DNA of 64,000 bases from an uncultured Clostridia bacterium (GTDB lineage: Bacteria; Bacillota; Clostridia; TANB77; CAG-465), in NCBI GenBank assembly GCA_934130595.1, contig CAKOYF010000001.1, positions 68,290 through 132,289 on the forward strand, given 5' to 3'. The translations under genes and the position numbers were made by a program. Positions 7,614 to 27,832 of this stretch are shown piece by piece. How positions within the stretch are numbered: the first letter of the stretch is position 1; every line of letters begins with the position of its first letter. The notes below the pieces were generated by a model. The model did no database searches. It had not been told where the DNA came from and was given only the letters and a program-made list of their open reading frames with translations.

Positions 7614-7757
7614 CCTAATATATATCTATTCACGACTTGCTAAGTTATTATTATTTTATGTTCAAACGACAAAAAAATATAAATCTATATATTATCTAAA
7701 TTATTTCGAAAAAAAACACACCAAAAAGTAATATTACTTTCTAGTGTGTTATTATTT

Positions 7758-10532
7758 TTATTGTATATCGTCGGCAGCTCTTGCATCAATATCATAAAGT
7801 ATAACTGTTCCTTTTACAAAATCATATAATTGTTGTGAATCAATTATCCATATTCCTTTTTCAAGTTGTATTCTTAAACTTGAATCTTTATTTACTTCTT
7901 GACCAGGATTTGAAAATCCTAAATATCCTTCATAATCCCACTGTGTTGTATTTACTGCTGAGCTTGCTGATTTATTAAGTGTATTGTATGATATTGTTTC
8001 ATTTAGTTTTGAATCATAACATGTAATCTCAAATTTTACACCAATATATCCATCTGTTAATGCATTTTGAATACTATCACCATTTTTTACAGCTATTGTA
8101 GTATTTGGTAGTTTAAATTCTCCAAACCATGTTTGAATGTAACCAGTATCATCTAGTGCCATCATATTATCTTTTAAGTAAAATTCACCTGAACTATTAC
8201 CAATATTTAAAGATTCTAATTTTTTAGATAAATATGATGTATTTGAAGCATATAGATCATTAGTATATCTACTTCCGTCATCTGGAGTAAAATATATATT
8301 ATATCCGCTTCCAACAAACTTTTTATATTTATCTGTTTCATCTTTATAATATAATGTTATATCTTTAATAACCTGAGAACCATCCTTAGATAAATAGTAA
8401 TACGTTGGTTTTATCTTTATTTTTCTAGCTTCTACACCACTATTACTTGGCATATAATATCCACTTGTTTTTACATCAAAGGAAAATCTATATCCAAGTT
8501 TTGGAGCATTTATATATCCTGCTGTAGTATGTTTATATGGACCTAATGGTAATGTTCTAGTTGAAGTTGTTCCGTTTATTTTTAAATTATTTCTATCTAC
8601 TAATGCTGTATATTCTTTATTTGCATTTGTATATATGTACATTCTTCTAATTCCAGAATAATATCCAGAGTTCTTATCTAAAACATTGGTATCTGATTGT
8701 CTAAATGCACTCTTATATGCTAAATCTGAGCAATCTGATATTTTAAAATCATATATTTTAGATGCTGTTCTTACTGCTATTGTTTTCATTGCAAAATAGT
8801 ATCCATCACCATACATCTTCACTCCTCTTGTGTAGTTTGAGTCTGTATGTGATTCAGAAAACTCAATATCGTTTGAAAAATTAGCAGTATTATCTCCACT
8901 ATCTGTTATATATTTTCTTGATGTAGCATCTTGTGTTTTATCCATCTGAATAGCTACTTCTTGATCTACCACATTATATAGCAATTCATCTGATGGCATA
9001 TTAGAAGCAGAAGCAAGTATTACTATTTTATGATTAGAAGAATCTCTAGATAATGTTTCATTAGGTGCTACTTGTCCTCTAAAATATGTATATCCATCAT
9101 TATATTTTGCTTGGTTAGTCATTCTTATTGCTGTACCTTTAGTATATGTTTTTCCATTATGTACAACATCAAAATCAAAAATCAAATAATAGTAGTTAAC
9201 AAATGCAGCTTTTTGATTTGCAGTTATATTATTGTAATATGTAAAATCTAAATCTCCACAGCTAAGCTTTATTTCAAAGTTTGCATCATCTGCAAGTATT
9301 ACAGTTGATGAATTTACAACAGAATGATCAATTGTTGAGTTACTTGTAGTTGTAATTTGTGGATCATTTAATTTTACAGGAGTATATACATTTATATAAT
9401 GTTCATTAGTTGATTCATATTCTCTTGTTCCACCATATTCACCATTTAAAACATTATATTCTTGATATATAACATTTCCTTTAGCACTTCTTAATCCATT
9501 TAATACATTTGATTGTATTATAATGTTTGCTAAGAAGTCATCTGCTCCTGCATCATCCCCATCTGTTTTATCTATATCATTTTTTCCAGGGATAACTGTA
9601 GTCTTTTTATCATTATAATTGCTAACTAATCCATTTAATATATCTGTTATACTATCTTTATTATTTATAAATATTGGAGATGTGCTTCCAATTCCTGTTA
9701 TAGCTGCTGCAGGATCAGTATTATCTACCAATTTTCCTGTTATTTCTATTTGACCATTAGTACCTTTATGTACTGATTCAGAAGATTTTAAGTATGCTTC
9801 ATTAAGTCTATACACTACAAAGTTACTAACTTTATAGCTTACCTTACCGTCTTCCATAACCTTTTCGTATGATAAATCTTTTATAACATATTTAGGTGTT
9901 TTAAAATATGGTTTTAAAGATCCACCAGCTGGTATATATGTAACATTAGATTGTAATCCTGCATCGTTTCCATTCCAAACGTTAGTATTACTATATAGCT
10001 TTGGAGATATGTTGTCTACAACATCTTCATTATAATAAAAATCTATTATTGTTACATCATTATTGTTAGACTGTATTGTTGTATATTGAGCATTTGCTTG
10101 ACTATTATTATATTCAACATCTAATTGTGATGTACCCGCTCTTACTGATGCTTTTTTTTGCTCCATTACTGAATATGCATCATCTAAGCTTGGCATAGTA
10201 CATATGTTATATCCCAAATAACTATATTTTTTACCATCAACTTGCATAACAAGTGTTTTAGTAATTTCCATAGTTGCTGAGACTGAATAATTATAATATT
10301 CACTATATGATATTTCAGCATCATCTGATGTAGAATTATTTAATAGTGTACTTTTTCCAGAAGACTCTTTTACTTCTTGAGTATTATTTTGCAATCCATT
10401 TATTATTTCACCATTTGCCTTATTTATATGTCTTACAAAAACTTCTCTACCATTTTCATATGCGTATATTTTAGGTGCTAATATAATGTTAAAAGCAATA
10501 AGCAAGAAGATTAATATTACTTTTTTATTCAT
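7758..10532 (-). CDS. Large secreted protein, 924 aa, Sec signal peptide, no LPXTG. Last gene of the pilus-like operon; candidate tip adhesin or secreted cargo.
   Basis: ATG with an AAGGAGGA RBS. Signal peptide MNKKVILIFLLIAFNIILAPKIYA. Translationally coupled to the upstream gene (stop at 10534). Confidence 0.5.
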   Translation of the reverse strand: MNKKVILIFLLIAFNIILAPKIYAYENGREVFVRHINKANGEIINGLQNNTQEVKESSGKSTLLNNSTSDDAEISYSEYYNYSVSATMEITKTLVMQVDGKKYSYLGYNICTMPSLDDAYSVMEQKKASVRAGTSQLDVEYNNSQANAQYTTIQSNNNDVTIIDFYYNEDVVDNISPKLYSNTNVWNGNDAGLQSNVTYIPAGGSLKPYFKTPKYVIKDLSYEKVMEDGKVSYKVSNFVVYRLNEAYLKSSESVHKGTNGQIEITGKLVDNTDPAAAITGIGSTSPIFINNKDSITDILNGLVSNYNDKKTTVIPGKNDIDKTDGDDAGADDFLANIIIQSNVLNGLRSAKGNVIYQEYNVLNGEYGGTREYESTNEHYINVYTPVKLNDPQITTTSNSTIDHSVVNSSTVILADDANFEIKLSCGDLDFTYYNNITANQKAAFVNYYYLIFDFDVVHNGKTYTKGTAIRMTNQAKYNDGYTYFRGQVAPNETLSRDSSNHKIVILASASNMPSDELLYNVVDQEVAIQMDKTQDATSRKYITDSGDNTANFSNDIEFSESHTDSNYTRGVKMYGDGYYFAMKTIAVRTASKIYDFKISDCSDLAYKSAFRQSDTNVLDKNSGYYSGIRRMYIYTNANKEYTALVDRNNLKINGTTSTRTLPLGPYKHTTAGYINAPKLGYRFSFDVKTSGYYMPSNSGVEARKIKIKPTYYYLSKDGSQVIKDITLYYKDETDKYKKFVGSGYNIYFTPDDGSRYTNDLYASNTSYLSKKLESLNIGNSSGEFYLKDNMMALDDTGYIQTWFGEFKLPNTTIAVKNGDSIQNALTDGYIGVKFEITCYDSKLNETISYNTLNKSASSAVNTTQWDYEGYLGFSNPGQEVNKDSSLRIQLEKGIWIIDSQQLYDFVKGTVILYDIDARAADDIQ

Positions 10533-10533
10533 A

Positions 10534-11856
10534 CTATTCCTCCTTACTAACTATACTACTACTTGTTTTTACTGTCATAGAATTAATAGGTAATTCTTTT
10601 ACAAATAGTGTTTGTGATGTTTCGTTTTTATTCATTACTGTATCTATATAAATTGTTATTTGATTGCTATTATAACTTACTTTTGCTCCAGACAAATCAT
10701 AAAGTAGAATATTGTCTTTTGTATCTGATGATTCAATTACTATTTCAAGCTTTGTTCTTACTCTATAATTTTCGCCATCAAAATATACACAAGGCATTTG
10801 AACTGTTGCTTTTCCATTTAGTTTTATATGATTTTGCTTAACATATTCAACATATTCATCTATCATATCTTCATCTAATTGCTCTAATACATATTTTTTT
10901 AGTTTTCTTTTTACTTGTTCTTTGGTTATTGTATTATAATCTACTGTTAAAATATAATTATAATAATTTTCGACATAACTTTTTATTTGACTATAATATT
11001 GTTTGTTATTAGGATAATACTCTATTGGAGATATAAACTTTTCATTATTTTCATTTTTAAGCTCTAATTCATATACATCTTTTTGAACACTTGCTAATGT
11101 ATATGGGTACATATCTGCATTAGTAGGTATTTTTTCTGAATTAATATTTATTTTTGAATTTCCTACTGTTATTGTATTGTATTTTTCAGCAAAATTTACT
11201 ATTAATTCATTTAATTTACCTTTATATAATTTTCTTTTTCCATCAATTCTTTTAGTGTTTACTTCTATTACTCCCGAATTTAACAAATCATAAATTGCTA
11301 GTTGTTGATCTGTGTTATATGCATTTATATCTTTTACATCATAATTTGCTGAAGTATCTGGTTCTATATCTAATATTTTAGCTTTAATGTTATATAACCA
11401 AACTAATACTTCTTGATATTTAACTTTTTCGTCTGCATTAGAAGCGTTAACTTCTTCTCTTGTTACAATTCCTTGTTTTATTGCATATTCTACCCATATT
11501 GCATTTGAGTATGTTTCCTGAGTTGGAAGTGCAATTCCATCTATAGTAGGAACATTGTATAAGCATGATAAAATCATTTTAATTGCTTCAGATTTTGTAA
11601 CTTTATCTTTTGTATTGGCATCCCCATCATTATATACTTGTGAAAAGCCATATATATCCATCTTTTGTTCGTATTTTTTATACTTATTATAATTTATATT
11701 AGCTAAGGTGTAACCTAAATATATCATTACAGCTATAATTATTGCTAGAATAACAGATATTATTGTTACAACAATTCTATGTTTTTTATTACTCTCTTTA
11801 ACTTTTTTCTGTTGTTCTTCTTGATTTTTGTATGACGGAACAAACCCTTCCTCCAT
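10534..11856 (-). CDS. Membrane-anchored extracytoplasmic protein, 440 aa (single TM near residues 28-50).
   Basis: ATG with an AGGAGG RBS. Lies inside the operon. Confidence 0.5.
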   Translation of the reverse strand: MEEGFVPSYKNQEEQQKKVKESNKKHRIVVTIISVILAIIIAVMIYLGYTLANINYNKYKKYEQKMDIYGFSQVYNDGDANTKDKVTKSEAIKMILSCLYNVPTIDGIALPTQETYSNAIWVEYAIKQGIVTREEVNASNADEKVKYQEVLVWLYNIKAKILDIEPDTSANYDVKDINAYNTDQQLAIYDLLNSGVIEVNTKRIDGKRKLYKGKLNELIVNFAEKYNTITVGNSKININSEKIPTNADMYPYTLASVQKDVYELELKNENNEKFISPIEYYPNNKQYYSQIKSYVENYYNYILTVDYNTITKEQVKRKLKKYVLEQLDEDMIDEYVEYVKQNHIKLNGKATVQMPCVYFDGENYRVRTKLEIVIESSDTKDNILLYDLSGAKVSYNSNQITIYIDTVMNKNETSQTLFVKELPINSMTVKTSSSIVSKEE

Positions 11857-11888
11857 TTAGATCACACCTCCTCTTTTTTTATTATACA

Positions 11889-13067
11889 CTATGGATTACA
11901 AATTGGACAAGGATAAAATCCTGTAAATGTTGTCTTAACACCATTTAGCGTACCTGTTGTTACAGATGTAGCCGCTTCTTGTCTAGATGTAACATATCTA
12001 GGTGACATATTCTTTATCTCACTTAGTTTATATTCTGGACAATTTATATCCTTATGATAAAGATTCATTTTTATTTGTGAATCTTTATTCGGTACTGTAA
12101 AGTAATATCTAGTTTTATTTTCTAATGTAGCTGTTCCAAAAGCTTTCGTATTTAGATATTTATTACCTACAGAAATACCTTGTACAAAAGCAATTATTCC
12201 TACACCATCTACCATGTTATATAGTTCATCTTCTGTTGTTGCTGGAAAAGAAAAAGAATATACCACTCCAGCTTGTCTAGCATATAGATTATTTTCATTA
12301 ACAGCATAAGACATCTCATTAGATACTACTTCTGCTATTATTGATGACCTTGTATCTTTCAAATGTGTTACTATTTGTGATTTTAAACTTTGTTTTACCT
12401 CACTATCTACAACACCTGCTACTAATTCATCATTATTATTTGAATCTCCTAAATAAAAACTTTGAGCTTCTATATCTTCATCATATAAGTAATTGTATCC
12501 TCTATGTGTTACTCTATCGTCCATAGTAAACTCAATAGTATGAATTGATACAACATTAGAAGTTTCTGTACCAGGTACCATCTTATACTCTCCATTTGAT
12601 CTTACAATTGAATATGTATATGTAAAATATCTTTTAGGTTTTAAAACTCTTTGAACTGAACTTGTACCATCACTAGCATTTACTGTTTCGTTTTTAGATA
12701 CTCGTACACCATCATATTCAACTACGGCAACAGCAGGAACAAAAAGGTTAAAATATGATTCTGCTGTTTCATTACCTTCTATTCCTAATGTATTATACAT
12801 AGCATTAAAGAAAGAATCTACTCCAACTTTTGCATTTACGTTTATCTTTTTATTGTTTGAATCTGAATATCCATAGTCTATGCTCTTATCTTGGCTTTCT
12901 ACTTGTTTCATTTCATATGCTGCATCTTCTAGAGCTGAATCTATAACTCTTTGATAATACATTTCCATTTCTTCAGCTTTTATTGTAAATGTAACATTGA
13001 TATATAACACTAACATAAACGGTAATATTATTGCTATAAAAACTAAAGCAAAATCTGTTATTTTCAC
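11889..13067 (-). CDS. Membrane-anchored extracytoplasmic protein, 392 aa, N-terminal TM.
   Basis: GTG start with an AGGAGGTG RBS. N-terminal hydrophobic segment ALVFIAIILPFMLVLYI. Confidence 0.5.
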   Translation of the reverse strand: MKITDFALVFIAIILPFMLVLYINVTFTIKAEEMEMYYQRVIDSALEDAAYEMKQVESQDKSIDYGYSDSNNKKINVNAKVGVDSFFNAMYNTLGIEGNETAESYFNLFVPAVAVVEYDGVRVSKNETVNASDGTSSVQRVLKPKRYFTYTYSIVRSNGEYKMVPGTETSNVVSIHTIEFTMDDRVTHRGYNYLYDEDIEAQSFYLGDSNNNDELVAGVVDSEVKQSLKSQIVTHLKDTRSSIIAEVVSNEMSYAVNENNLYARQAGVVYSFSFPATTEDELYNMVDGVGIIAFVQGISVGNKYLNTKAFGTATLENKTRYYFTVPNKDSQIKMNLYHKDINCPEYKLSEIKNMSPRYVTSRQEAATSVTTGTLNGVKTTFTGFYPCPICNP

Positions 13068-13078
13068 CTTTTCACCTC

Positions 13079-14083
13079 CTATATCTCTGGTATAGTAATT
13101 GAACTATTTATTTTTATTACTATTTCTTGTGAACTTGCACTTGCATTTTTAGAGAATTTTCCTTGAATAACATTAGCTGGTAAGAAACATTTAAAATTAT
13201 TGTATTCATTATTTAAGAAATATGTCTTACTCTTAGTGTCATCTAATGTAAATTTAACTATATATTCTCCCTCACCACTTTCTTCAATTGAAGAAGGAGA
13301 TACAAAGCAATTAGGTGCTGTTCCCACAAGTCTTATATTATCTCTTATTTTTCCTACAAGATTTGTATCGTCTGCATTTAATATTTGAACTTTGAATGTT
13401 AAAATTCTATCTTTAGCAACATCAAAACTATATTCTGGATTTCCATTTACATTTGGCTCATTTCCATCTTGTAAATTTATTTTAATCAATATATCACTTT
13501 GATATAATTGGCTTATTTCTGTGTTTTCCCAGTTGTTATTTTTAATAGTTGCTCCATAAGTAATGTTTATTTTTTCCTTACTTGCTCCTCCTACTATAAC
13601 ATTTAATAATGAAGAAGCCATTGTTGTATTAGTATTTTTTACTGTAACATAAAACTTATCTCCTACATCAAGGAAAAAAATATCATTTTTCAAACTATTG
13701 TCTTTGTCTATTATATTACTTGTTTTTCCAGTCTCATCATTAAAAATATCCTTGTTATAATATGATTTATACTGTTCTACATAAGTTTCATTTCCTTCAT
13801 CTGGATTAGTATTTGAAGGATCTACTGTTAATACTTTCTTTTTAGCCTCAACTTGAATATCATATGAGTTTCCAGTTGTACCAAGTCTTTGTATAAATTT
13901 ATCATACATATCTTGGTCTATATAACCATTTTGCGCTACTTCATCTACAAACATTGTAACTGTTTTTAAAGTTAAGTTATATGACATATCATCTTGTCTT
14001 TCAAAATAGTTATATAAAGGAAGAAGTACTAATAATATTACTAAAAATATTACAGCCACAATCATACTAAGTGTATCCTTCAT
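13079..14083 (-). CDS. Large pilin-like (pseudopilin) protein, 334 aa; paralogue of 14992..16563.
   Basis: ATG with an AAGGAGGA RBS. N-terminal hydrophobic helix IVAVIFLVILLVLLPLY, then the shared motif ..DDMSYNLTLK...NGYI..DMYDKFIQRL..T.NSYD seen in 14992..16563. Confidence 0.5.
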   Translation of the reverse strand: MKDTLSMIVAVIFLVILLVLLPLYNYFERQDDMSYNLTLKTVTMFVDEVAQNGYIDQDMYDKFIQRLGTTGNSYDIQVEAKKKVLTVDPSNTNPDEGNETYVEQYKSYYNKDIFNDETGKTSNIIDKDNSLKNDIFFLDVGDKFYVTVKNTNTTMASSLLNVIVGGASKEKINITYGATIKNNNWENTEISQLYQSDILIKINLQDGNEPNVNGNPEYSFDVAKDRILTFKVQILNADDTNLVGKIRDNIRLVGTAPNCFVSPSSIEESGEGEYIVKFTLDDTKSKTYFLNNEYNNFKCFLPANVIQGKFSKNASASSQEIVIKINSSITIPEI

Positions 14084-14098
14084 TTTATTCCTCCTTTT

Positions 14099-14563
14099 TT
14101 ACCACTGCTCTTCAAGTTCTTCATCTGTAGCTTTTATTATATTTATATAAGTTGTATTTTCATTAGTGCTCTTATCTACAGTAAGTATATATTTATTATT
14201 CATACCAATCTTATTTATTGCCTCTTTATATGTTAAAGTTTTGCTATCTAACATAAGTGGTGTTTCATTTTTTGTTGATAAATTAATATTTACCACAACA
14301 TCATTATTAACAGTATCGTCTGAATATCTGTCTTTTTTTATATAATTATAATAATACGATAAAACTTCTTGTCCTGTTAAAATCAAGTGCCTATTTACTT
14401 CTCCTGTTACAGTTACTGCATCATTAGATTGCTGATGCATGTAATCATAAGCTTCATCTGTATAATTCATCAGCGATGAAAATAAGAAAATAGTTAAAGA
14501 TAAAGCTATAACAAAAATCATAGTATATATACCAATGTAAATAGCCTCATTTGCATTTTCCAT
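14099..14563 (-). CDS. Small pilin-like protein, 154 aa, class-III-like signal peptide.
   Basis: ATG with an AGGAGGTG RBS. N-terminus MENANEA|IYIGIYTMIFVIALSL. Confidence 0.5.
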   Translation of the reverse strand: MENANEAIYIGIYTMIFVIALSLTIFLFSSLMNYTDEAYDYMHQQSNDAVTVTGEVNRHLILTGQEVLSYYYNYIKKDRYSDDTVNNDVVVNINLSTKNETPLMLDSKTLTYKEAINKIGMNNKYILTVDKSTNENTTYINIIKATDEELEEQW

Positions 14564-14574
14564 ATTTTCACCTC

Positions 14575-14979
14575 CTATATTTTAGTAAAACTAATTTTTG
14601 TTTTCATTAATCCATCATATTCAACTTCTTCAACTTTTGATTTATATTTGTCTTCATATTTTAAAATGCCATTATTATATTGGTCATTTAGATAATTTAT
14701 TCCATTTTCATCATTAACGCTAAATCCATTGTATTCAACTACAACTAAATTTTCTTTGTAATATTTATTTGCACAATTTATTACATCTAGTCCTGTAACC
14801 TCTGTGTTATCATAAGAAGCATACTTTCCAAATCTAGCTGTTATAGATGTGTCTGTTGAGTTTACTTGTTTATATACTCCTTTCATTTGGGAAAATATAA
14901 ACATTATTCCTGAAATTATAATAACTGTTACAAATATTCCAACGCCAAACATTAATGCTCTATTTGCTGATTCTCCCAA
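14575..14979 (-). CDS. Small pilin-like protein, 134 aa, class-III-like signal peptide.
   Basis: TTG start with an AGGAGGA RBS. N-terminus MGESANRA|LMFGVGIFVTVIIISG. Confidence 0.5.
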   Translation of the reverse strand: MGESANRALMFGVGIFVTVIIISGIMFIFSQMKGVYKQVNSTDTSITARFGKYASYDNTEVTGLDVINCANKYYKENLVVVEYNGFSVNDENGINYLNDQYNNGILKYEDKYKSKVEEVEYDGLMKTKISFTKI

Positions 14980-14991
14980 ATGTTTTTCCTC

Positions 14992-16563
14992 CTATTCTAT
15001 TCCATATCTTTGTTGATCTATTTTAAAGTTTTCTTTTATTTCTTCTTCTGTTAAAGCTCTATCGTATATTCTTACACAATATATAGTTCCTTTAAATTGA
15101 GTATTAGCACCAGCGCCTGCAAGTGGACTTCCACCAATTACTAAGTTAGTGCCTGTTGCAGCATTTACCATTTCAGTATTAAATGGTATACCATCAACAT
15201 TACCATTAATTCCTAATAATTGTGCACTAGTTTCATATGCAAATTTATCTCCACCTAAAGTTAAGTCCATCTTTCCTACAGATCCAGCTATTGAATATAT
15301 TTTATTAGCTTGCATTATTGTACCATCTGAAACAACTGAAGATAAATTATTTCCTGTTTTATTTGTATAAACATCAAAAGATATTTTTCCTCTTTTTGAG
15401 ACACTTGTAGAATTTAATTGGTTAAATACTATTCCAGCGCCTCCATTATTTAAGCAACTTACTATAGATTGTTCTGAAGTGTCAGGATCTGTTACACTAT
15501 CTAACTTCATTACAACTTCTATAGTCATCTCTGAGAAATTAAATTCTTTTAATGATACATACTCTTTTCCTGTAAAATGTAATCCATTGTATATCCATCC
15601 AGATTCATCATTAAAATCAAAACCAGATAATGTGGCATTATTTCCATTACCACTAAGATCTTTCCAAATATTAGCTGAATTTGAATGAACTGTTCCATCA
15701 TTATACTCACCATTTAATAGAACAACAAGTCCGTTTGTAATATATGAGTTAACTAAAGAACTTGTATTTTCAGAACCTGGTGTATTAGTGCTTTCGTTAT
15801 AGTTTTGGTTATCATCATTTACAGTCTTGTCTCTATATGTTTCAGCTTTTACAGTACCTCCGTAATTTACATATATTCTAGTATTATTTTGACTTGATGC
15901 TCCAAAAGTAATTAAATTATATATTACACTTGCCATAGTTGTATTTTTATTTTTTACTATTACGCTAAACTCGTCGCCTTCATTCATTGTATATACTTGA
16001 GTGTTACTTTCTGGCATATATATACTTGTAATTGCAGGTAAATTTCTAAAATCAATACCTTTATATACATCTAGTGATGTTTTTACAGTAAGAGTTCTAT
16101 CTGTTGAACTAATTACATCTAATATTTGCTTCTCATTATATTTTTTTTCAGATAAGTCATAAGCTAGTACTAAATTATTATATGTTCCTGCATTTACTCC
16201 TTCATTTACAACAATTTGGTTATTTTCATATTGTTCTTTATATAAATTATAATCAAATTTTGCTCTAATTGTAGATAAGTCATCTGTATATGAATATATA
16301 ACAGGATTATATTTTTTTGCTGTATGCTCCATATATACATCATAACTATTTTGAGTTACTGCTAGTTTTTTTATAAAATCACTGTACATTTCTGATGTTA
16401 TATAGCCTTTAGCATTAACATTATCAACAAAATCAGTTGTTATTTTTAGTGCTAAGGCATAAGATATATCATCTTTTTTTTCATAAGCTATATATACTGG
16501 CAATATAAAAAGTATAACAACAGCTATTAGTACTGAAACTACTTTTTGTAAAATTCCATCCAT
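14992..16563 (-). CDS. Large pilin-like protein, 523 aa, with a C-terminal LamG/concanavalin-like jelly-roll domain. Candidate lectin-type minor pilin or tip adhesin.
   Basis: ATG with an AAGAGGGG RBS. N-terminal helix VVSVLIAVVILFILPVY. The C-terminal half resembles a LamG-like domain (..WKDLSGNGNNATL.GF.F....W..NGL.F.G..YV...). Confidence 0.5.
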   Translation of the reverse strand: MDGILQKVVSVLIAVVILFILPVYIAYEKKDDISYALALKITTDFVDNVNAKGYITSEMYSDFIKKLAVTQNSYDVYMEHTAKKYNPVIYSYTDDLSTIRAKFDYNLYKEQYENNQIVVNEGVNAGTYNNLVLAYDLSEKKYNEKQILDVISSTDRTLTVKTSLDVYKGIDFRNLPAITSIYMPESNTQVYTMNEGDEFSVIVKNKNTTMASVIYNLITFGASSQNNTRIYVNYGGTVKAETYRDKTVNDDNQNYNESTNTPGSENTSSLVNSYITNGLVVLLNGEYNDGTVHSNSANIWKDLSGNGNNATLSGFDFNDESGWIYNGLHFTGKEYVSLKEFNFSEMTIEVVMKLDSVTDPDTSEQSIVSCLNNGGAGIVFNQLNSTSVSKRGKISFDVYTNKTGNNLSSVVSDGTIMQANKIYSIAGSVGKMDLTLGGDKFAYETSAQLLGINGNVDGIPFNTEMVNAATGTNLVIGGSPLAGAGANTQFKGTIYCVRIYDRALTEEEIKENFKIDQQRYGIE

Positions 16564-16564: not shown

Positions 16565-17032
16565 TTATACCCCTCTTATTGTTATTACTTTAGATCCTAA
16601 ATCAGTATCTACATCTTCTACGCTAATTGTAAAATCCTGATTATCCATAATATATCTCAAAGCTCTATTATATGAGCTTTCTCTAATGTTCATTTCTTTT
16701 GAATCCATTACAACTGAATCTAATATTTGAATATTTCCATTTTTATCTAAATACTTAATATTATATGCATTAACGCTAACATTAACGTTATCCTCATAAT
16801 AATTAAAAAGATTAATTACACTAGTTCCTTTAATGTAATTTCCAGTATTACTCATAAGAAGAGTAGATTCAATATCATGTCTATAGATATTTCCAAAGTT
16901 TTTACCTGAACCAGCATTTTTTACTATATTTAAACTTGAATTAAAAAATATTATAATTGCTGATACAGTCATAACTCCAACTAATGTTGTAACACCTATC
17001 ATTATTGCTTTTGATAGATTGTCCTCATCCAT
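16565..17032 (-). CDS. Small pilin-like protein, 155 aa, class-III-like signal peptide.
   Basis: ATG with a GAAAGGAGGAG RBS. N-terminus MDEDNLSKA|IMIGVTTLVGVMTVSAIIIF. Confidence 0.5.
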   Translation of the reverse strand: MDEDNLSKAIMIGVTTLVGVMTVSAIIIFFNSSLNIVKNAGSGKNFGNIYRHDIESTLLMSNTGNYIKGTSVINLFNYYEDNVNVSVNAYNIKYLDKNGNIQILDSVVMDSKEMNIRESSYNRALRYIMDNQDFTISVEDVDTDLGSKVITIRGV

Positions 17033-17117
17033 TCTACTCTCCTCCTTTCGTTATATAAACATATGTTAAAGCATATATTTTGATACACTCTAAAATATGT
17101 CTATATATAATGTTCAA

Positions 17118-17143
17118 GGTATATAACTAAAAAATTATATACC
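17118..17143 (-). terminator. Intergenic stem-loop (9 bp stem) directly downstream of the first pilin gene. Possible partial terminator or attenuator.
   Basis: GGTATATAA-ctaaaaaa-TTATATACC. No clean U-tract. Confidence 0.3.
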
Positions 17144-17171
17144 CTGAAATTATTCATAATTTATATATCTT

Positions 17172-17660
17172 TTATTTTTCTCTAGTAAATAATATTCCTA
17201 ATACAACGTCTCCACTTGTGCTTTTAATAAGTTGTGCTTTATATCTGGCAGAAGCTGGTACATATGTAGAAGTGTTAGAGCTATCAGATAAAGTACTTAC
17301 TTTAGCTTGTGCATGACTTGAATCATAGCTTAAAGCTTTGTCTATTGAAACTGTTCCGTTTCCTCTAACTTTTCCTAGTTCAAGTATATCTCCACCAACA
17401 ATTGGTTGAACTTCAAGGATCATACTTTGATCTGTATTATATAATTGAACTGTAGAAACAACTTTTGCTCCTGTAACTACAACATCATCATATTCTTGTG
17501 TTAGTTGTTGTTGTAGTGCATCAGATAAATTTGTAACTTTGTTTGTTGCATTGTTAATTAAGTTTATAGCTGGATTAACTATTAACATTACAGCAGCTAT
17601 AATTAAAATTGTTACAAATAATCCAACACCTATCATTATTGCTTTTTGTGCATTATCCAT
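17172..17660 (-). CDS. Pilin-like protein, 162 aa, class-III-like signal peptide. First pilin gene after the platform gene, so a candidate major subunit.
   Basis: ATG with an AAGGAGGAATATAA RBS. N-terminus MDNAQKA|IMIGVGLFVTILIIAAVMLIV, archaellin-like (compare A.GIGTLIVFIA). Confidence 0.55.
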   Translation of the reverse strand: MDNAQKAIMIGVGLFVTILIIAAVMLIVNPAINLINNATNKVTNLSDALQQQLTQEYDDVVVTGAKVVSTVQLYNTDQSMILEVQPIVGGDILELGKVRGNGTVSIDKALSYDSSHAQAKVSTLSDSSNTSTYVPASARYKAQLIKSTSGDVVLGILFTREK

Positions 17661-19774: not shown

Positions 19775-21673
19775 TCACCTCCAAGCCATATCTAAGAATT
19801 CATCAAAAGCTTTTATATCTTCTGCAGACATATTATCTCTCATTGCTTTAATGTTTTCTTCGCTAATAGGATTTTTAAATACATATTTTCCATCAACAAA
19901 TTCTACGATGTTTCTATATGTATAGTTTTTACTTTGTGTCATATGTTGAAAATATTCAACAGCATTATCCATAAACTTGTCTAGTTTTTGATTTACATCT
20001 TTTACTTTTCTATAATCATTATTATATGTATATGTTTGCTCTAATGGAATACATTCTGTTATTCTTTCAATGTATCTAGTACCATCTACAGCTCTTTTTA
20101 AATGTATATCAAAGTTTATAACTTGAACAACCTGTACTTCTGCAACTTGTTCAGAATTGAACATTCCAATTTTTAATAATGAGTTTCTAAGTGATGTTAT
20201 TAAGTTTGGAAATGTCTTTGCATGGTGTGTAAATAATGTAAATTTAGATGCAACCTGTGCCATCTGAATCATCCAAGCAGCAACTGGATCAGTTGCAACC
20301 TCTCCTAATATGTTTACACCACCATCTGTTTTCTTTTGAACATCTAGTCCTTCTTGTCCTGTTATAGTATCTGTTTCTCTTAAAGATAAGATGTTATGAT
20401 ATGGATAAATTTTTCTTAAGTGTAATTCGAATGCAGTTTCCTGTACACGAATTGTTATTGTTGGATATAAGAATTTCATTATAGCCATCAATAATGTAGT
20501 TTTACCACAACCCTGCTCACCAGTTATTGCAGTAACTCTGGCTCCTCTAATTAAATATTTTAATAACTCTACAACATTTTCTTTATTTTCATGAACAAGT
20601 AATTGTTCAGGTGAAATTAATGTAGGTGGAGCAAATTTTCTAACAAAAAAAGCCCAAGATTCAGAGAAGTTTGGTCTAAGAACAACAACTCTGGAACCAT
20701 CTTTCATTTCATTTATTTTATAACCAACAGACTCAGATAACTGTCCTGGGTTATTATATTTGTATATGTTTTGACATACTCTTTTTAACTCTGCTTCACT
20801 ACCAAAAGATAAGAAAGATAAATATGTAGCTTTACCTTTATAGAATATCCATACAGAATCATATGACATTGGTATTTTAGCTTCATTCATTTGTGTTAAG
20901 TAATCATCAATATCACTTAACTGATCTAGGAATGATGGTGGAATACCTGATACACCACCTGATACACCATCAATATTCATATCTCTTATATCATCTACGA
21001 CGCTATATCCTTTATATTCTTGGTATATTCTTTGTACTACTATCTCTAGCTTGTCTTCAAATGAAAGTGTTTCAGTTGAAACTTCATTTGTAAATATATC
21101 ATCAATCTCTTTTGCTGTAATTACATATGAAGGTACTGTAGCATCAAATTCATATTTTGGATAATCTAGAGCGTACTTTGTTATTATCTTTGTTAAAGCT
21201 TCTGCTTTATATGTTTTCTTGTAAATATGCATTAATATTTCAAATTTATCTTGTGATGTTAATTCATTAAAGTTATTAAATGGAATTGCATAGTTAATAT
21301 TAAAGTTATTTACTTTATAATCATTCTTTAGCAAATCAAACATTAATGATTTTACATACTTTTTATCATTTGAATCAGCATATCCGGCACCTTTTAAAGC
21401 TCTCTTTAATTCATATTTAACATTTTTTCTTCTTTCAAATTCTTCTTCAGATAATGCTAAATCATACAAATTCATTCTAGTAATTTCATCAAATTGCTTT
21501 TTTATATAATTTTGCATAGTAGAAAGACTATATGTTGTCTTTTCTCTTGTTAAACTATCTTCTACCATTTGGTCTGCACCAGATTTTTTTACTTTGTAAT
21601 AGAAAAACGCTGCTACAAATGCTAATAAAAGAAGTATTAACAAAATATTAAATACAAATGCAACTGACATCAT
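19775..21673 (-). CDS. Secretion/pilus ATPase of the TadA/CpaF/FlaI type (VirB11 superfamily), 632 aa, with an N-terminal TM anchor.
   Basis: Walker A GEQGCGKTT, Walker B and a His-box (THHAKT). No tetracysteine zinc motif, so not a GspE/PilB type. N-terminal helix VAFVFNILLILLLLAFVAAFFYY. Confidence 0.7.
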   Translation of the reverse strand: MMSVAFVFNILLILLLLAFVAAFFYYKVKKSGADQMVEDSLTREKTTYSLSTMQNYIKKQFDEITRMNLYDLALSEEEFERRKNVKYELKRALKGAGYADSNDKKYVKSLMFDLLKNDYKVNNFNINYAIPFNNFNELTSQDKFEILMHIYKKTYKAEALTKIITKYALDYPKYEFDATVPSYVITAKEIDDIFTNEVSTETLSFEDKLEIVVQRIYQEYKGYSVVDDIRDMNIDGVSGGVSGIPPSFLDQLSDIDDYLTQMNEAKIPMSYDSVWIFYKGKATYLSFLSFGSEAELKRVCQNIYKYNNPGQLSESVGYKINEMKDGSRVVVLRPNFSESWAFFVRKFAPPTLISPEQLLVHENKENVVELLKYLIRGARVTAITGEQGCGKTTLLMAIMKFLYPTITIRVQETAFELHLRKIYPYHNILSLRETDTITGQEGLDVQKKTDGGVNILGEVATDPVAAWMIQMAQVASKFTLFTHHAKTFPNLITSLRNSLLKIGMFNSEQVAEVQVVQVINFDIHLKRAVDGTRYIERITECIPLEQTYTYNNDYRKVKDVNQKLDKFMDNAVEYFQHMTQSKNYTYRNIVEFVDGKYVFKNPISEENIKAMRDNMSAEDIKAFDEFLDMAWR

Positions 21674-21683: not shown

Positions 21684-22496
21684 TTACTCTTTTATTTTTA
21701 ATATTTTTACTATTTCCTCTACTATTTCTGTTGCCCTTAGCATAAACTCACCATTATAATCTTTTGCTGGAGCGTTTATATTTCTGTATAAAAAGTCTAA
21801 GACATTACCATCATTACATGCATCTGTAAATAAATAGTTATGTGGAAGTACGTAACATGGTTCTGGAATTTTGTACTTTAATTTAACATTAAAAATATTA
21901 TACTTAGATCCAGACTCATAATCTCCTAAAACAAATATTTTTTGTTTATCTTTTAAGCTATCTATACTATTAAGTTTCTTTAATACGTTATTCAATTTTT
22001 CTATTTCCTGAGGAATTACACACACTATAATGTCTGACTGTTCCATTACTCTTATTGCACTATCATCAGTAGTAGTCTTAGGTAAGTCTATAAACACTAA
22101 GTCATATACTTCATCTGCATTTTTAGCAATTAGTGGCATGCTAATTAAATTTTCTCTTTTTTCTGTTGTTGTATTAGCTATGGCACTATAAAGTATATCT
22201 AATCTTCCTTTTAATACAGGCTTTGAATAGTTTTGAATTATGTCCGGTGACAATTTATTACTCTTAATTAAACGCATTATTGCATTCATACCAAGATTAG
22301 TATCATTAAAACTATTTGCATTTACTAAATCATCATACATAGTAAATGATGAAGCTATTTTTTTAGCATTTGAATTTGCATCTATTAAAAGAGAAGATGT
22401 TTTATGTGTTATTCCCATTAGAGAACTAATAGCAATAGCAGTATGTGTACATCCACTTTTTCCCTCTTCTGGACTCCAAAATACAATCTTTGCCAT
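21684..22496 (-). CDS. ParA/MinD-family ATPase, TadZ/CpaE-like, 270 aa.
   Basis: N-terminal P-loop-like SPEEGKSGCT and Walker-B-like DLVFIDLP. RBS AGGAGGAG. Confidence 0.5.
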   Translation of the reverse strand: MAKIVFWSPEEGKSGCTHTAIAISSLMGITHKTSSLLIDANSNAKKIASSFTMYDDLVNANSFNDTNLGMNAIMRLIKSNKLSPDIIQNYSKPVLKGRLDILYSAIANTTTEKRENLISMPLIAKNADEVYDLVFIDLPKTTTDDSAIRVMEQSDIIVCVIPQEIEKLNNVLKKLNSIDSLKDKQKIFVLGDYESGSKYNIFNVKLKYKIPEPCYVLPHNYLFTDACNDGNVLDFLYRNINAPAKDYNGEFMLRATEIVEEIVKILKIKE

Positions 22497-23204
22497 TTAA
22501 TTTCTCCTCCTTTTTATTTCTTTTAATACTTCTTTAGAAGAAACATCTCCTAATATTCTAGAAATATACTCACATAAGTACAATATATATGTTTTTGTAT
22601 GTTTTCTTAAATCTATAAGTCCACTGAATTGTGAATCTATATTAACCATCATATCTTGTTCATCAGTACTAATATCATAAACCTCATCTGTCCACTTAAC
22701 TGCATAATTATTTATTTTTTCTTCTAAATAATTTGTTGCTGCTCTAGATAAGTATGCTCTATATAAAATCTTTGAAAATACTAATTCTTTATCTGGATTT
22801 TCTTCTCTCATTTTATGTACAAGTTCATCATTTTTTGTTACTGATATAACATTAGTATCTATATACATATATGATTTATCTACTTGTAAATCTTTAAATT
22901 TAGCGTACGTATTTGCATCCTCTATATCTATTAAGACATAATTATATAATTTAAGATCTATATTCTTTTCACTTAAATATTTTTCTAATGAATCGTATGA
23001 ATCAAACCCAACTGCAAAGTCTATATCCGCATATCTAGTTACATATTCTGAGCTATTATCTATAGTTGGTACTATACATTTATATTTTTTATCTGATGTA
23101 GCATCAATTACTAATACAGATTTTCCCATAATATTTAAAGCTCTAGCTGTTGCAATTACAAAGTCATATTTATCTACATATCCATACATTCCAATTACTT
23201 GCAT
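22497..23204 (-). CDS. ParA/MinD-fold protein with a degenerate P-loop (likely pseudo-ATPase), 235 aa.
   Basis: N-terminus VIGMYGYVDKYDFVIATARALNIMGKSVLVIDAT aligns to ParA-family architecture but lacks the GKT/S lysine. Confidence 0.4.
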   Translation of the reverse strand: MQVIGMYGYVDKYDFVIATARALNIMGKSVLVIDATSDKKYKCIVPTIDNSSEYVTRYADIDFAVGFDSYDSLEKYLSEKNIDLKLYNYVLIDIEDANTYAKFKDLQVDKSYMYIDTNVISVTKNDELVHKMREENPDKELVFSKILYRAYLSRAATNYLEEKINNYAVKWTDEVYDISTDEQDMMVNIDSQFSGLIDLRKHTKTYILYLCEYISRILGDVSSKEVLKEIKRRRN

Positions 23205-23219: not shown

Positions 23220-24251
23220 CTATTTTCCTTCTAATAAGTTTTCTCTTTCAGTTTGTTGCATAATAATAGATTGTTGTGCTCCTGTAACTACATTTTCGTA
23301 ATCATCACTATTTTGTGATTTGTAGTTTTTGATTCCACTTTCTATTGTAGATCTTGACTCAGCATTTAATCTTGAAAGCTCAGTACTTGCATTTTTTAGT
23401 AAATATTGGTTTGATTTCATAGCACTCATAACATAAGTATTTGGTTGATAGTTTTGTGTTGTTTTTGTTGAAGCATTTGCAAAGTTTTTATATTTATATA
23501 TATAATCATATAATTTAGTTGCTGCTTCAGTTACATCCATCTTTTTAAGTTCATCCCAGTCTTTTTCAATAACTGTTTCAAGATATCCTTTTGTTTCACT
23601 TTCAATATCTGAAGATGTTTTAACTTGAGCATCACTATCTGTATATCTTAAAGCATATAATTTAGATCCACTGTTTAAGAAAGAATCAACTACTGCACTG
23701 TTTAATAGTTGGATTTCATCCTCAGATAATTTCATCCAGAAAGTTGTGTCATATATTTTATCTATGTTCTTTTGTGCAAGAACTATGTAATCTGTTCCAT
23801 TAGGATACATTATTCTAATATCTACAGTATCTCCCTCAACAAGATCACTAGGCATAAGAACTGTATTTATTTCAACGTCTCTTACATCAGCAGCTACAAC
23901 TTCATCACTTACCATATCTCCTGTAATAGGCACTTTTGCAGCTATATTATATTTTGCACTTAGTCCAACAACACTTCCTGAAGATACAACTCCTGTTGGT
24001 ACTGTATGATTGTTTACATTTACAGTTTCAATCATATCTGCAGTTATAATTTCTCCTTGTACAACGTTTCTTTTTAAAACAACTACTGGTGTAGTATAGT
24101 TTTTAATATAATTTTTGTTTGTTCCATCTTTATATGATTTTATAGTAAAGAAAGAAAATACACTTACACCAACGGCTACAACGATTCCAACACTAGCTCC
24201 AATCAATATACCTTGTATTGTTTTCTTTTTAATTTGACTCATTCCTATCAT
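23220..24251 (-). CDS. CpaB/RcpC-like pilus assembly protein (N-terminal TM plus SAF domain), 343 aa. First gene of the operon.
   Basis: TM helix ILIGASVGIVVAVGVSVFSFF followed by a SAF-like segment (VVVLKRNVVQGEIITADMIETVNV). RBS GGAGG. Confidence 0.5.
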   Translation of the reverse strand: MIGMSQIKKKTIQGILIGASVGIVVAVGVSVFSFFTIKSYKDGTNKNYIKNYTTPVVVLKRNVVQGEIITADMIETVNVNNHTVPTGVVSSGSVVGLSAKYNIAAKVPITGDMVSDEVVAADVRDVEINTVLMPSDLVEGDTVDIRIMYPNGTDYIVLAQKNIDKIYDTTFWMKLSEDEIQLLNSAVVDSFLNSGSKLYALRYTDSDAQVKTSSDIESETKGYLETVIEKDWDELKKMDVTEAATKLYDYIYKYKNFANASTKTTQNYQPNTYVMSAMKSNQYLLKNASTELSRLNAESRSTIESGIKNYKSQNSDDYENVVTGAQQSIIMQQTERENLLEGK

Positions 24252-25665: not shown

Positions 25666-25775
25666 ATATTCCACCTCAATATATTGTATTAAATAATATG
25701 TAAATTTATTAATTATATTGTATAAATATACAATCCTAGCTTTCAAATTTTTATACTAGTATATTGGAAATATAT

Positions 25776-25859
25776 ATAAATAAGGAGATATGATTTAACA
25801 TATCTCCTCTGTATTTCACAAACGTATATAAGACAAAAATTCCACAAATCTTATATACT
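25776..25859 (-). ncRNA. Candidate sRNA, unit A.
   Basis: Minus-strand promoter TTGAAT-17-TGaTATACT (-35 at 25889..25894, -10 at 25866..25871). Body has hairpin 2 (GUAUAUAAGA/UCUUAUAUAC) and terminator hairpin GGAGAUAUG/CAUAUCUCC (25784..25807) followed by a U-tract. Confidence 0.55.
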
Positions 25860-25895
25860 AACCATAGTATATCATAATTTTGCTTTCTATTCAAA

Positions 25896-25980
25896 TAAAA
25901 ATAAGGAGATATGATTTAGCATATCTCCCATGTATTTCACAAACGTATATAAGACAAAAAATTCACCAATCTTATATACT
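25896..25980 (-). ncRNA. Candidate sRNA, unit B.
   Basis: Promoter TTGAAC-17-TGcTATACT (-10 at 25987..25992). Terminator hairpin at 25905..25928 followed by a UUAUUUUUAUUU tract. Confidence 0.55.
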
Positions 25981-26015
25981 AACTATAGTATAGCATATTT
26001 CTGTTTTTTGTTCAA

Positions 26016-26101
26016 ATTAAATAAGGAGATATGACTTAACATATCTCCTCTGTTTATAACCAATGTATATAAGACAAAAAAATTCACCAATCTTATATAC
26101 T
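26016..26101 (-). ncRNA. Candidate sRNA, unit C.
   Basis: Promoter TTTACA-17-TGgTATACT (-10 at 26108..26113). Terminator hairpin at 26025..26048. Confidence 0.55.
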
Positions 26102-26132
26102 AATATTAGTATACCATATTTATATAAAAATG

Positions 26133-26210
26133 TAAAAGGAGATTAGAGCTCTCCTTTTACGTCATACAACAAAGATATATAGGTCTATAAAAACCCATTC
26201 CCTATATATC
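26133..26210 (-). ncRNA. Candidate sRNA, unit X (divergent body).
   Basis: Promoter TTGAAC-17-TGtTATAAT (-35 at 26240..26245, -10 at 26217..26222). Distinct terminator AAAAGGAG/CUCCUUUU at 26134..26158 followed by a U-tract. Confidence 0.45.
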
Positions 26211-26247
26211 AATTGTATTATAACATAATTTTGTTTTTGGTTCAAAT

Positions 26248-26331
26248 TAAAATAAGTAGATATGATTTAACATATCTACTCTGTTTGTAATATCATATAT
26301 AAGACAAAAAATTCCTCAAATCTTATATACA
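26248..26331 (-). ncRNA. Candidate sRNA, unit D.
   Basis: Promoter TGaTATACT with a weak -35. The terminator hairpin carries a compensatory double substitution (GUAGAUAUG/CAUAUCUAC at 26256..26279) that preserves pairing. Confidence 0.55.
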
Positions 26332-26669
26332 AGTATTAGTATATCATGTTTTAAAATAAAAATAAACAAGATATTATATCTTCTTTACTATTAGCACCAC
26401 ACCATAGCTTTCTTTATATTTAGTATTAAAGATTATTCTCCAAAATACTTTTTGATCTATTCGTCGCCTAAAACTTTACCGCCCACATAGACTATCTGGA
26501 GTTTTCTAATAACAAAAAATATGGAGAAAAATCTTCTCTTTTATTTAATATAATGAATCTAAATCATTTATATCTATACTATATAATTATATTCTACTTG
26601 TATAAGTTACAGTAGTTTTGGCACAGTTATTAAACTAAAAATTTTAATTCAAAAGCTCAATTTAAGCTA

Positions 26670-27056
26670 CTAATCTTTGCTAATTTTAGTTTTAATACAT
26701 TTTTTTATTAAATTTCCTACAAATATTCCAACTAAGGATATGATTCCAAATATAACAAATATACTTATATCGGGAATAACAAATCTCTTATATGCTAAAT
26801 CATACGTTATATAATCACATAACATAATAGAGATTCCAAAAAGTAAAACTAAAAGGTATTTACTTCTACCTCTAATTTTCAAACTATAAATTACTGATGT
26901 AATAAAAGTACTCAAAGGAAATAAATAAATAAAATATATTATACCGCCTAATCCTGTGCCCTCAACATCTTTATTACGCCAAAGTATTATTTCTGATATA
27001 ATCAAAATAATAAAATATATAATTATTGGTAAAAAATCCTTAATTTTTTTCTTCAT
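26670..27056 (-). CDS. Small polytopic membrane protein, 128 aa (about 4 TM helices), function unknown.
   Basis: ORF track. Hydrophobicity pattern. Flanked by direct copies of the sRNA unit. Confidence 0.4.
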   Translation of the reverse strand: MKKKIKDFLPIIIYFIILIISEIILWRNKDVEGTGLGGIIYFIYLFPLSTFITSVIYSLKIRGRSKYLLVLLFGISIMLCDYITYDLAYKRFVIPDISIFVIFGIISLVGIFVGNLIKKCIKTKISKD

Positions 27057-27537
27057 ATATACTCCACCTCTCTTATTTTAATATTATCATAAAAAAATAT
27101 ATTTACAATATCTAATATTACAATTAAGCATTTTTATCTACTTACATTTAAATTATTATTTAGATTTTAATTAAGATTCAATTTTATCTAAATTCTTCTT
27201 AATATATAGAAGTCTTATAACGCTTTTGGCTCAGTTTTTTCTTGGATCATGTATTACTCACCTATTCTACAATTTTAGGTAATTCTGTATATAATAGTTA
27301 TTTTCTAGTTCTAATATTGGTAAATATAAATCCTTTTTTAGATTTTCTAATACATTTACATGTACAATTGAAATTTCTACTTCTTTAAAATCAATTTTTA
27401 CAATTCTAAATTAAAATTTGGTTATATACTCATCTTCTTGCAGTTCTAACTTATTAAAATTTAATTCATATACTTTTTCTAAATCCAATTTAGCTATAAA
27501 CATTTTAAAATCATCTTTATTTGCTTTCTATTCAAAT

Positions 27538-27621
27538 TAAAATAAGGAGATATGATCTAACATATCTCCTCTGTATTTCACAAACGTATATAAGACAAAA
27601 ATTCCACAAATCTTATATACT
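27538..27621 (-). ncRNA. Candidate sRNA, unit E (solo copy).
   Basis: Promoter TTTACA-17-TGaTATTAT (-35 at 27651..27656, -10 at 27628..27633). Terminator hairpin at 27546..27569. About 95% identical to unit A. Confidence 0.5.
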
Positions 27622-27754
27622 AATATTATAATATCATATTTATATGAAAATGTAAAATGAGTCTTTTGTAATCTCTTTATTTACGCTTTTAGTTATATAT
27701 ATTATATTTATGTAATTTATTTTGTTCATATTATTGAATAAAAAGCGCTTTCTA

Positions 27755-27783: not shown

Positions 27784-27832
27784 TATATGGGTAAAAAATT
27801 GTTTACCCGATTTTTAATAAAGGAGGAATTTT

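Follow-up and report, generated by a model that had tools for sequence, protein, structure and literature searches.

We analyzed a stretch of 64,000 nucleotides from an uncultured Clostridia bacterium of the TANB77 lineage (contig CAKOYF010000001.1 of assembly GCA_934130595.1, positions 68,290 to 132,289 of the forward strand; hereafter, the window). The stretch carries an operon resembling those for Tad-type pili, and here we focus on two large genes of this operon, bigA and bigB, whose products share an N-terminal module (the N-module) and differ in what follows it. Both open reading frames (ORFs) are present on the minus strand at the coordinates given in the initial annotation of this DNA. 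Their start codons are preceded by strong Shine-Dalgarno sequences (AGAGGGG for bigA, AAGGAGG for bigB), and neither ORF can be extended upstream. Homologues were found for both bigA (108) and bigB (186), all of them from metagenomes or from metagenome-assembled genomes (MAGs) of uncultured Clostridia. The plus-strand ORFs within the region, which would encode 53-73 amino acids (aa), were discarded as unsupported shadows. The two genes and their parts are as follows.

14992..16563, minus strand: bigA, 523 aa, made of N-module, linker and LamG jelly roll; Shine-Dalgarno sequence plus ATG
15829..16563, minus strand: bigA N-module, residues 1-245
15754..15828, minus strand: bigA linker, residues 246-270
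14995..15753, minus strand: bigA LamG / concanavalin A-like jelly roll, residues 271-523, with the Pfam match at 332-510
13079..14083, minus strand: bigB, 334 aa, paralogue of bigA; compact N-module plus a C-terminal domain rich in beta structure
13526-14083, minus strand: bigB N-module, residues 1-186
13082-13525, minus strand: bigB C-terminal domain, residues 187-334, beta-rich

The two proteins are paralogues, as had been suggested. BLASTP aligned them with 45% identity over residues 1-83 (expect value (E) 3e-20), and the proposed common motif, LP(V/L)Y..(K/Q)DD(I/M)SY(A/N)L(A/T)LK...GYI...MY..FI..L..T.NSYD, can be read directly in this alignment. A second common block was found further on, with 46% identity over 50 residues (135-181 versus 190-239, E 3e-9). 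When orthologue alignments from eight loci were compared profile to profile with hhalign, bigA 1-245 matched bigB 1-186 at 99.8% and E 8.8e-29. By these comparisons, the similarity between the two N-modules is far above chance. The N-module consists of two conserved blocks with a variable insert between them, which in bigA correspond to residues 1-95 and 190-240 for the blocks and 96-189 for the insert. Block 2, the last ~50 residues of the module, follows the pattern ...Y.MN.GD.F.V..KN.NTT.A....N..T.....R.YVNYGG.

AlphaFold2 predicted the same topology for both paralogues, namely an N-terminal helix of 51 residues and, after it, a small alpha/beta domain. The bigA model, built from 80 homologues, had a mean predicted local distance difference test (pLDDT) score of 84. 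In it, a hydrophobic stretch at residues 8-26 lies within a continuous helix spanning residues 2-52, the first half of which is the sole hydrophobic segment of the protein, and the small alpha/beta domain extends to residue ~240. The bigB model is only moderately confident (mean pLDDT 68) and repeats this arrangement, with a helix at 2-52, a strand at 54-56, a helix at 57-68 and then a long strand. The N/S/T-rich linker of bigA (246-270) is predicted to be disordered, with pLDDT below 50 at residues 246-265. Among orthologues with the LamG-type bigA, identity was 71-78% in the N-module core, 48% in the linker and 58% in the LamG region.

The resemblance of the bigA C-terminal region to LamG/concanavalin A (ConA)-type jelly rolls, also put forward in the initial annotation, held in both sequence search and structure prediction. 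Pfam PF13385 (Laminin_G_3) matched residues 332-510 with a score of 45 bits (cut-off 27.6; E 1.6e-11), and AlphaFold2 placed an all-beta domain at ~275-523 with pLDDT mostly above 90. In a Foldseek search against the PDB, the top 50 matches of the bigA model were all lectin-like receptor-binding (HC) domains of clostridial neurotoxins, with E values of about 1e-9 and a probability of 1.00. The family match and the model together confirm a predicted Laminin_G_3 / ConA-like jelly-roll fold for this domain. Sequence identity to the neurotoxin domains is only 14-17%, and the likeness of fold gives no ground for claiming a common ligand site. Two PHROG families of unknown function also matched residues 268-522 (E 1.6e-7 and 5.5e-7), and a profile search of PDB sequences returned nothing. 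The C-terminal domain of bigB gave only weak beta-sandwich matches with poor template-modelling scores (Foldseek against the PDB, best E 7.6e-4).

By analogy with related domains, the bigA jelly roll probably binds a glycan or another surface ligand. A less likely alternative is that it is not a glycan-binding lectin at all and serves instead as a protein or lipid binder or as a glycoside hydrolase-like module. The PF13385 model is broad and spans a superfamily of both lectins and glucanases, the best structural matches are the neurotoxin HC domains, in whose jelly-roll half we know of no proven sugar site, and no sugar-binding residues could be assigned in bigA. Across 34 orthologues, ten LamG positions are conserved at 97% or more, all of them Gly, Asn or Tyr, with no Asp or Glu among them. 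Conservation reaches 88-94% at six Asp/Glu positions, and a glucanase-type catalytic pair was not identified. These patterns speak, though weakly, against an enzymatic role. In terms of function, the closest precedent is PilC of Streptococcus sanguinis; it belongs to this superfamily and is a proven lectin, which speaks against the non-lectin explanation.

We then considered how far the N-module extends beyond this locus. A profile of the module retrieved 1257 representatives (clusters at 50% identity) at E<=1e-3, 721 of them at E<=1e-10, and no Pfam or NCBIfam model exists for it. Among the best 150 of the 1257 matches, the proteins were 123-1559 aa long. A Pfam scan of 98 members identified a range of appended domains: ALK/LTK glycine-rich (12), dockerin (10), LamG (4), Listeria-Bacteroides repeat (2) and Big_13 (1). 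As far as sequence comparison can tell, the family combines a conserved base with interchangeable distal domains of predicted extracellular type.

The gene order around bigA and bigB is shared by the window and nine full-length relatives of the locus in uncultured Clostridia (L001-L007, L009 and L010, of which L009 is truncated at its 5' end): machinery genes, small pilin-like genes, bigA, two small genes, bigB, a gene of ~400 aa, a gene of ~450 aa and a huge gene. Two small pilin-like genes precede bigA in most loci and three in L010. Each of these loci, the window and truncated L009 included, carries exactly two N-module genes at fixed positions, and the distal parts of their products differ. 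The two proteins measure 327 and 427 aa in L006, both with a dockerin, 607 and 1244 aa in L005, and 1494 and 621 aa in L009. In the 1494-aa protein at the bigA position of L009 (1112-5596), ~850 residues separate the two N-module blocks, which indicates that the internal variable loop of the module is also a site of domain insertion. The 621-aa protein at the bigB position contains the N-module and no Pfam domain. A reduced cluster, L012 (1270-11884), has five machinery genes followed by three genes of 187, 430 and 627 aa, the first a small pilin-like gene and the last a carrier of the N-module. That one N-module gene is kept even here suggests a core role for it, and hints that L012 represents a minimal functional set.

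Type I dockerins were seen at the ends of both N-module proteins of L006 (10001-10984 and 11951-13234) and of a protein in another locus, L008 (163-2025). No cohesin was seen in the dockerin-bearing cluster itself. Dockerins on pilus-associated proteins would imply the recruitment of partner proteins.

In the window, the two genes belong to a single minus-strand operon of 14 genes, which starts with a CpaB-like gene and ends at a terminator-like hairpin. The order is CpaB-like gene, two genes in the CpaE/TadZ positions, ATPase, platform, s1, s2, bigA, s3, s4, bigB, g392, g440 and g924, where s1-s4 are the small pilin-like genes and g392, g440 and g924 three conserved downstream genes. The remaining features of the operon are these.

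23220..24251, minus strand: CpaB-like protein, 343 aa, with an N-terminal membrane helix and a SAF domain; first gene of the operon
21684..23204, minus strand: two ParA-like proteins, 270 aa and 235 aa, in the CpaE/TadZ positions
19775..21673, minus strand: divergent CpaF/TadA-type ATPase, 632 aa, with an N-terminal hydrophobic segment
17716..19770, minus strand: polytopic membrane protein, 684 aa, in the TadB/TadC platform position
17172..17660, minus strand: s1, 162 aa, small pilin-like protein, candidate major subunit
17113..17148, minus strand: hairpin of 16 base pairs without a T-tract, in the 139-nucleotide gap after s1
16565..17032, minus strand: s2, 155 aa, small pilin-like protein, immediately 5' of bigA
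14575..14979, minus strand: s3, 134 aa, small pilin-like protein, closest paralogue of s1 (hhalign E 2e-15)
14099..14563, minus strand: s4, 154 aa, small pilin-like protein, immediately 5' of bigB
7758..13067, minus strand: g392, g440 and g924
7715..7750, minus strand: intrinsic terminator-like hairpin with a T-run, which ends the operon

The proposed filament-operon context was borne out by three observations: CpaF is the only significant solved relative of the ATPase, a CpaB-like gene with a SAF domain is found upstream, and gene order is maintained across loci. The PDB match of the ATPase to CpaF (E 1e-8) covers residues 274-549, and the T2SSE and TadA models of Pfam and NCBIfam scored below their cut-offs. 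The CpaB-like protein matched Pfam SAF above the cut-off (E 3.7e-8) and TIGR03177 (CpaB) below it (E 9e-6). The 270-aa and 235-aa proteins had no Pfam match and were assigned by position and by the structural assignment reported in PMC11680825. The platform-position protein had no Pfam, NCBIfam or PDB sequence match; of its 645 homologues, the named ones come from MAGs of uncultured Clostridia or Christensenellales. The ATPase also has an N-terminal extension of ~270 residues that begins with the strongly hydrophobic segment MMSVAFVFNILLILLLLAFVAAFFYY, a feature that is unusual when compared with the normally soluble TadA/CpaF ATPases.

The flanks of the operon are chromosomal, with a gene for a PBP5-type carboxypeptidase upstream and SpoIID, M23 peptidase, SpoIIID and MreB/Mbl genes downstream, and guanine plus cytosine (GC) make up about 28% of the sequence. 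Upstream of the PBP5-type gene lies an AT-rich stretch (25747-27832; GC about 23% for 26001-28000), in which the sole ORF above 80 aa encodes a 128-aa membrane protein. Its neighbor at 27833-29344 is the sole long plus-strand gene in that part of the window. Scans of all 64,000 nucleotides for Rfam families and tRNAs gave no hits.

The small proteins s1-s4 are mutually homologous (hhalign E 2e-15 to 1e-5) and form a family of their own. Their common N-terminus consists of a short polar stretch, the motif [KR]-A-[IL]-x-[IV]-G-V and a hydrophobic helix, without Glu5; the N-terminus of s1, MDNAQKAIMIGVGLF, is almost invariant across orthologues. We take this motif to resemble archaeal class III signal peptides more than bacterial Flp or type IVa motifs. 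A Pfam scan of 16 small-pilin orthologues gave nothing meaningful, and a search of PDB sequences with their alignment gave no pilin match, returning nothing or chance matches. The hairpin at 17113-17148 is possibly an attenuator or an mRNA-stabilizing element, and its placement, typical of such an element behind the gene of a major subunit, suggests that s1 is the major subunit. We also considered a tandem duplication of a small-small-large unit. In the pairwise comparisons, bigA-bigB and s1-s3 are the best pairs but s2-s4 is the weakest of the small pairs, so that the duplication is suggestive at most and was set aside. Kinship of the N-module to the small pilin-like proteins or to g392 was likewise rejected, with hhalign probabilities of 2-3%.

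Of the three downstream genes, g392 (11889-13067, minus strand) encodes a protein with an N-terminal hydrophobic helix that begins, in the window and in its orthologues from L001-L007, with MK(I/L)TD(F/Y)ALxF...LP. Counting Met1 as 1, position 5 is invariably acidic and position 6 is aromatic, which recalls Glu5-Tyr6 in mature Flp/TadE-type pilins, but a leader peptide is absent; the C-terminal end of the protein carries a CPxC-type motif (CPICNP), and no Pfam or NCBIfam match was found. The g440 product is bitopic. The last gene of the operon, g924 (7758-10532, minus strand), encodes a protein with a signal peptide and no known domain, and is a further candidate for a surface or adhesive component. 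Its length across related loci (L004 16060-19554; L005 from 19062; L007 from 18595) ranges from 922 aa to more than 2000 aa.

A comparable system has been published. A 2024 study in Nat Commun described a 'pilus gene cluster exclusively conserved in TANB77', an order of gut bacteria, as a conserved run of 10-14 genes (PMC11680825). According to that paper, the cluster encodes CpaB (358 aa), a TadZ-like protein (231 aa), a CpaE-like protein (280 aa), TadA/CpaF with one transmembrane helix (640 aa), a TadC-TadB fusion identified by structure (693 aa) and seven one-helix 'pilin-like' proteins, which measure 165, 170, 143, 146, 237, 178 and 621 aa in the published representative, HRGM_Genome_2725 of CAG-245 sp000435175; no prepilin peptidase is listed there for the cluster. 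The N-terminal quarter of the 621-aa protein, 'pilin 938', was reported there to resemble TadE/PilV structurally, and the protein to activate dendritic cells and, in mice, to enhance the response to anti-PD-1 (PMC11680825). As judged from gene order and protein length, the locus studied here matches the TANB77 pilus cluster: its machinery proteins are of nearly equal size (343, 235, 270, 632 and 684 aa), and small and then large one-helix proteins without database domains follow. The series differs from that of HRGM_Genome_2725 in that it runs 162, 155, 523, 134, 154 and 334 aa, and then 392, 440 and 924 aa. No 693-aa protein is among the platform matches listed, which comprise close relatives only, and N-module family members of 620-627 aa and 236 aa proved to lie on short contigs or in a different, reduced cluster. 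Orthology between bigA/bigB and 'pilin 938' is probable, the N-module protein at the bigB position of L009 having the same length of 621 aa, and the available text of PMC11680825 describes neither two large paralogues nor a shared N-module family, LamG or domain swapping.

Taking these observations together, we propose that bigA and bigB are large, modular, minor-pilin-like tip subunits of a very divergent Tad-type pilus in a monoderm, spore-forming, low-GC gut Clostridia bacterium, a reading to which we assign a probability of roughly 55%. The operon itself provides a CpaF-like ATPase and a polytopic protein in the platform position. As in the placement of TadE/F/G-type genes, the pair follows the platform gene and stands beside smaller pilin-like genes, with a large member that carries a variable C-terminal module. 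The layout of bigA, with an N-module, a disordered linker (246-265) and a LamG domain, resembles that of a modular pilin, with the N-module as the putative pilin moiety.

Two known systems provide precedents for this arrangement. For TadE/TadF/TadG and KilL/M/N, trimers at the pilus tip have been predicted, with a variable C-terminal domain of the large subunit exposed; in Myxococcus, four paralogous sets occur (PMC12075869). Our pair resembles TadG/KilN in its position after the platform genes and beside smaller pilin-like genes, in the occurrence of paralogous sets per genome, and in the combination of an N-terminal hydrophobic helix, a globular part and a variable C-terminal module proposed to be the pilus tip (PMC12075869). 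In contrast, TadE/F/G and KilL/M/N have a predicted prepilin-peptidase site after a leader and Pfam TadE/Tad matches, neither of which bigA and bigB possess, and the Tad/Kil hosts are diderms with secretins whereas the host of bigA and bigB is of the spore-forming Clostridia type. The second precedent comes from S. sanguinis, where PilC (with a ConA-like lectin module) and PilB (with a vWA module) are modular type IV pilins (PMC9934059, PMC8179133). Both are placed at the tip, and PilC is a proven lectin for which activity and structure were determined experimentally (PMC9934059). The likeness lies in the monoderm host, in an architecture where a linker connects a short N-terminal base (a pilin moiety in PilB and PilC, a putative one here) with a binding module, and in the presence of two modular subunits per system that are proposed tip caps. 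PilB and PilC, unlike our proteins, come from a type IVa-like pilus, and their class III signal peptide is canonical, with a leader of 8 residues, whereas bigA and bigB, known here from sequence and models alone, have Tad/CpaF-like machinery and a leaderless N-terminus. By analogy with these systems, we infer that bigA and bigB would enter the filament, occupy its tip and bind a ligand there, and that the labels of tip adhesin and glycan binder, proposed for them from the start, may apply.

In our model, the N-module would be the assembly part. Its extreme N-terminal hydrophobic helix would hold the protein in the membrane with the N-terminus inside and the C-terminus outside, until the CpaF-like ATPase and the platform extract it and it bundles with the helices of s1-s4. 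The large subunits would be restricted to the tip because their C-terminal domains are bulky; in that position they would prime the assembly, and a flexible linker would display their distal modules. The distal module would then act as the effector that is exchanged between lineages, a LamG/ConA-like jelly roll in bigA and a beta-sandwich domain in bigB.

A number of results weigh against this proposal, most of them concerning whether the two proteins are pilins. Operon context, the single N-terminal hydrophobic helix and the AlphaFold2 topology support the 'pilin-like' label of the initial annotation; the signal peptide and the family assignment that the label would lead one to expect were not found. 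Type IV pilins have a 'lollipop' fold, in which the C-terminal half of a long alpha1 helix of about 50 residues at the N-terminus packs against a beta-sheet, and a class III signal peptide, in which a short polar leader with a final Gly/Ala, removed by a prepilin peptidase, precedes about 21 hydrophobic residues, usually with Glu5. Neither bigA (MDGILQKVV) nor bigB (MKDTLSMIV) has a class III signal peptide, only the hydrophobic tract being present, and both lack the -1 Gly/Ala and Glu5 (position 5 is Leu), a processing motif of the G/XXXXE[YF] type and the [KR]-A-[IL]-x-[IV]-G-V motif of s1-s4. No GxGD-type aspartic prepilin-peptidase motif occurs in ORFs above 80 aa across the 64-kb window. 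TadE, TadG, N_methyl and other pilin families gave no match to bigA or bigB in Pfam, NCBIfam or PDB sequences, with TadE (PF07811) and Tad (PF13400) absent from the Pfam/NCBIfam results even at E<=0.1, and the 98 scanned family members matched no pilin or Tad family in Pfam at E<=1e-3. By hhalign, the two proteins are unrelated to the small pilin-like proteins, and Foldseek of a LamG-free bigB model of moderate confidence against the PDB returned no pilin (best E 7.6e-4). Finally, we know of no filament observed for a TANB77-type system, published work included. In scans of Pfam, NCBIfam and PHROGs, bigA and bigB yielded only LamG and the two PHROGs of the LamG region, and no pilin or Tad model exceeded its cut-off among the neighbors; phmmer and profile searches of PDB sequences with bigA and the family alignment gave nothing or chance matches, such as haemagglutinin at E>0.4.

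The explanation that draws most on these results is that bigA and bigB are bitopic membrane-anchored proteins, with the N-terminus inside and the C-terminus outside, that never polymerize. They might be PilN/PilO-like accessory or alignment components whose outer domains tie the apparatus to cell-wall glycans or partners, or co-regulated surface-displayed binding proteins on an uncleaved signal anchor. We regard this as doubtful, though it is the strongest competitor for the pair as a whole. No leader, cleavage motif or peptidase was found in the window, while s1-s4 have an N-terminal motif of their own, and neither sequence nor Foldseek searches link the pair to pilins. In bitopic alignment proteins, a transmembrane helix generally continues as a long helix that leads to a small alpha/beta domain, a plan that the layout of bigA fits. 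At the cell surface, wall polymers or cohesin partners could just as well be the ligands of LamG and dockerin domains. However, PilN/PilO-type proteins are also absent from the Foldseek matches of the bigB model in the PDB. Moreover, some distal parts exceed 1200 residues, consist of immunoglobulin-like or repeat domains and are freely swapped among close relatives, which is typical of exposed adhesins and not of parts of a machine, and the constant succession of small pilin genes and a large gene resembles the tip sets of the TadE/F/G type.

For the tip-subunit proposal, the missing leader could be accommodated by a bolder extension, which taken as a whole we consider unlikely. Under this extension, bigA, bigB and possibly g392 would be translated directly from the mature pilin N-terminus, with Met1 replacing Phe1; the translation start would then coincide with the mature N-terminus, and the proteins would enter the filament without a prepilin peptidase. 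With Met1 counted as 1, P22, Y24 and Y/F27 fall in the register of mature type IVa pilins, and hhalign aligns position 8 to position 8, at an insignificant probability (~1%), which makes the shared register a lead and not evidence. The N-module would further be a universal 'socket' for interchangeable tip effectors in TANB77-type gut bacteria, including LamG lectins, ALK-type glycine-rich domains, immunoglobulin-like arrays and dockerins, the last of which would recruit cohesin-bearing partners as a cellulosome-like plug-in system on the pilus. The variable module would be the host-facing determinant, because 'pilin 938' has been reported to boost anti-PD-1 therapy in mice (PMC11680825).

Least probable by far is a type II-secretion-like, non-adhesive Tad-type machine with a short pseudopilus, for which bigA, bigB and g924 would be cargo or surface-release substrates: large variable proteins, including signal-peptide-bearing g924, do follow the machinery genes in every locus and no filament has been demonstrated, but bigA and bigB have only a signal-anchor-like helix and no cleavable Sec signal, that helix and the adjoining module are the most conserved part and fit an assembly interface better than cargo, and we know of no precedent for type II-like secretion by Tad systems in monoderms.

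The system type to which our proposed tip subunits belong has already been published, and modular lectin-bearing pilins have an experimental precedent. New here are the definition of the N-module family with an estimate of its extent, the conservation of two paralogous positions, the range of exchanged modules, dockerins among them, and the absence of leaders from the N-termini. For the biology of type IV filaments, this raises an open point, namely a Tad-type system whose presumed large subunits are leaderless, with no peptidase in the window. If bigA and bigB were ordinary membrane anchors, the finding would simply be a modular surface-protein family that accompanies a pilus operon. TANB77 bacteria, all of them uncultured, are widespread in the guts of humans and animals, and PMC11680825 links their pilus cluster to checkpoint-immunotherapy response. 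Within this cluster, the large 'pilin-like' proteins form one big unannotated family in which the variation between species sits in the distal module and not in the base, and this provides a concrete handle on what these bacteria stick to.

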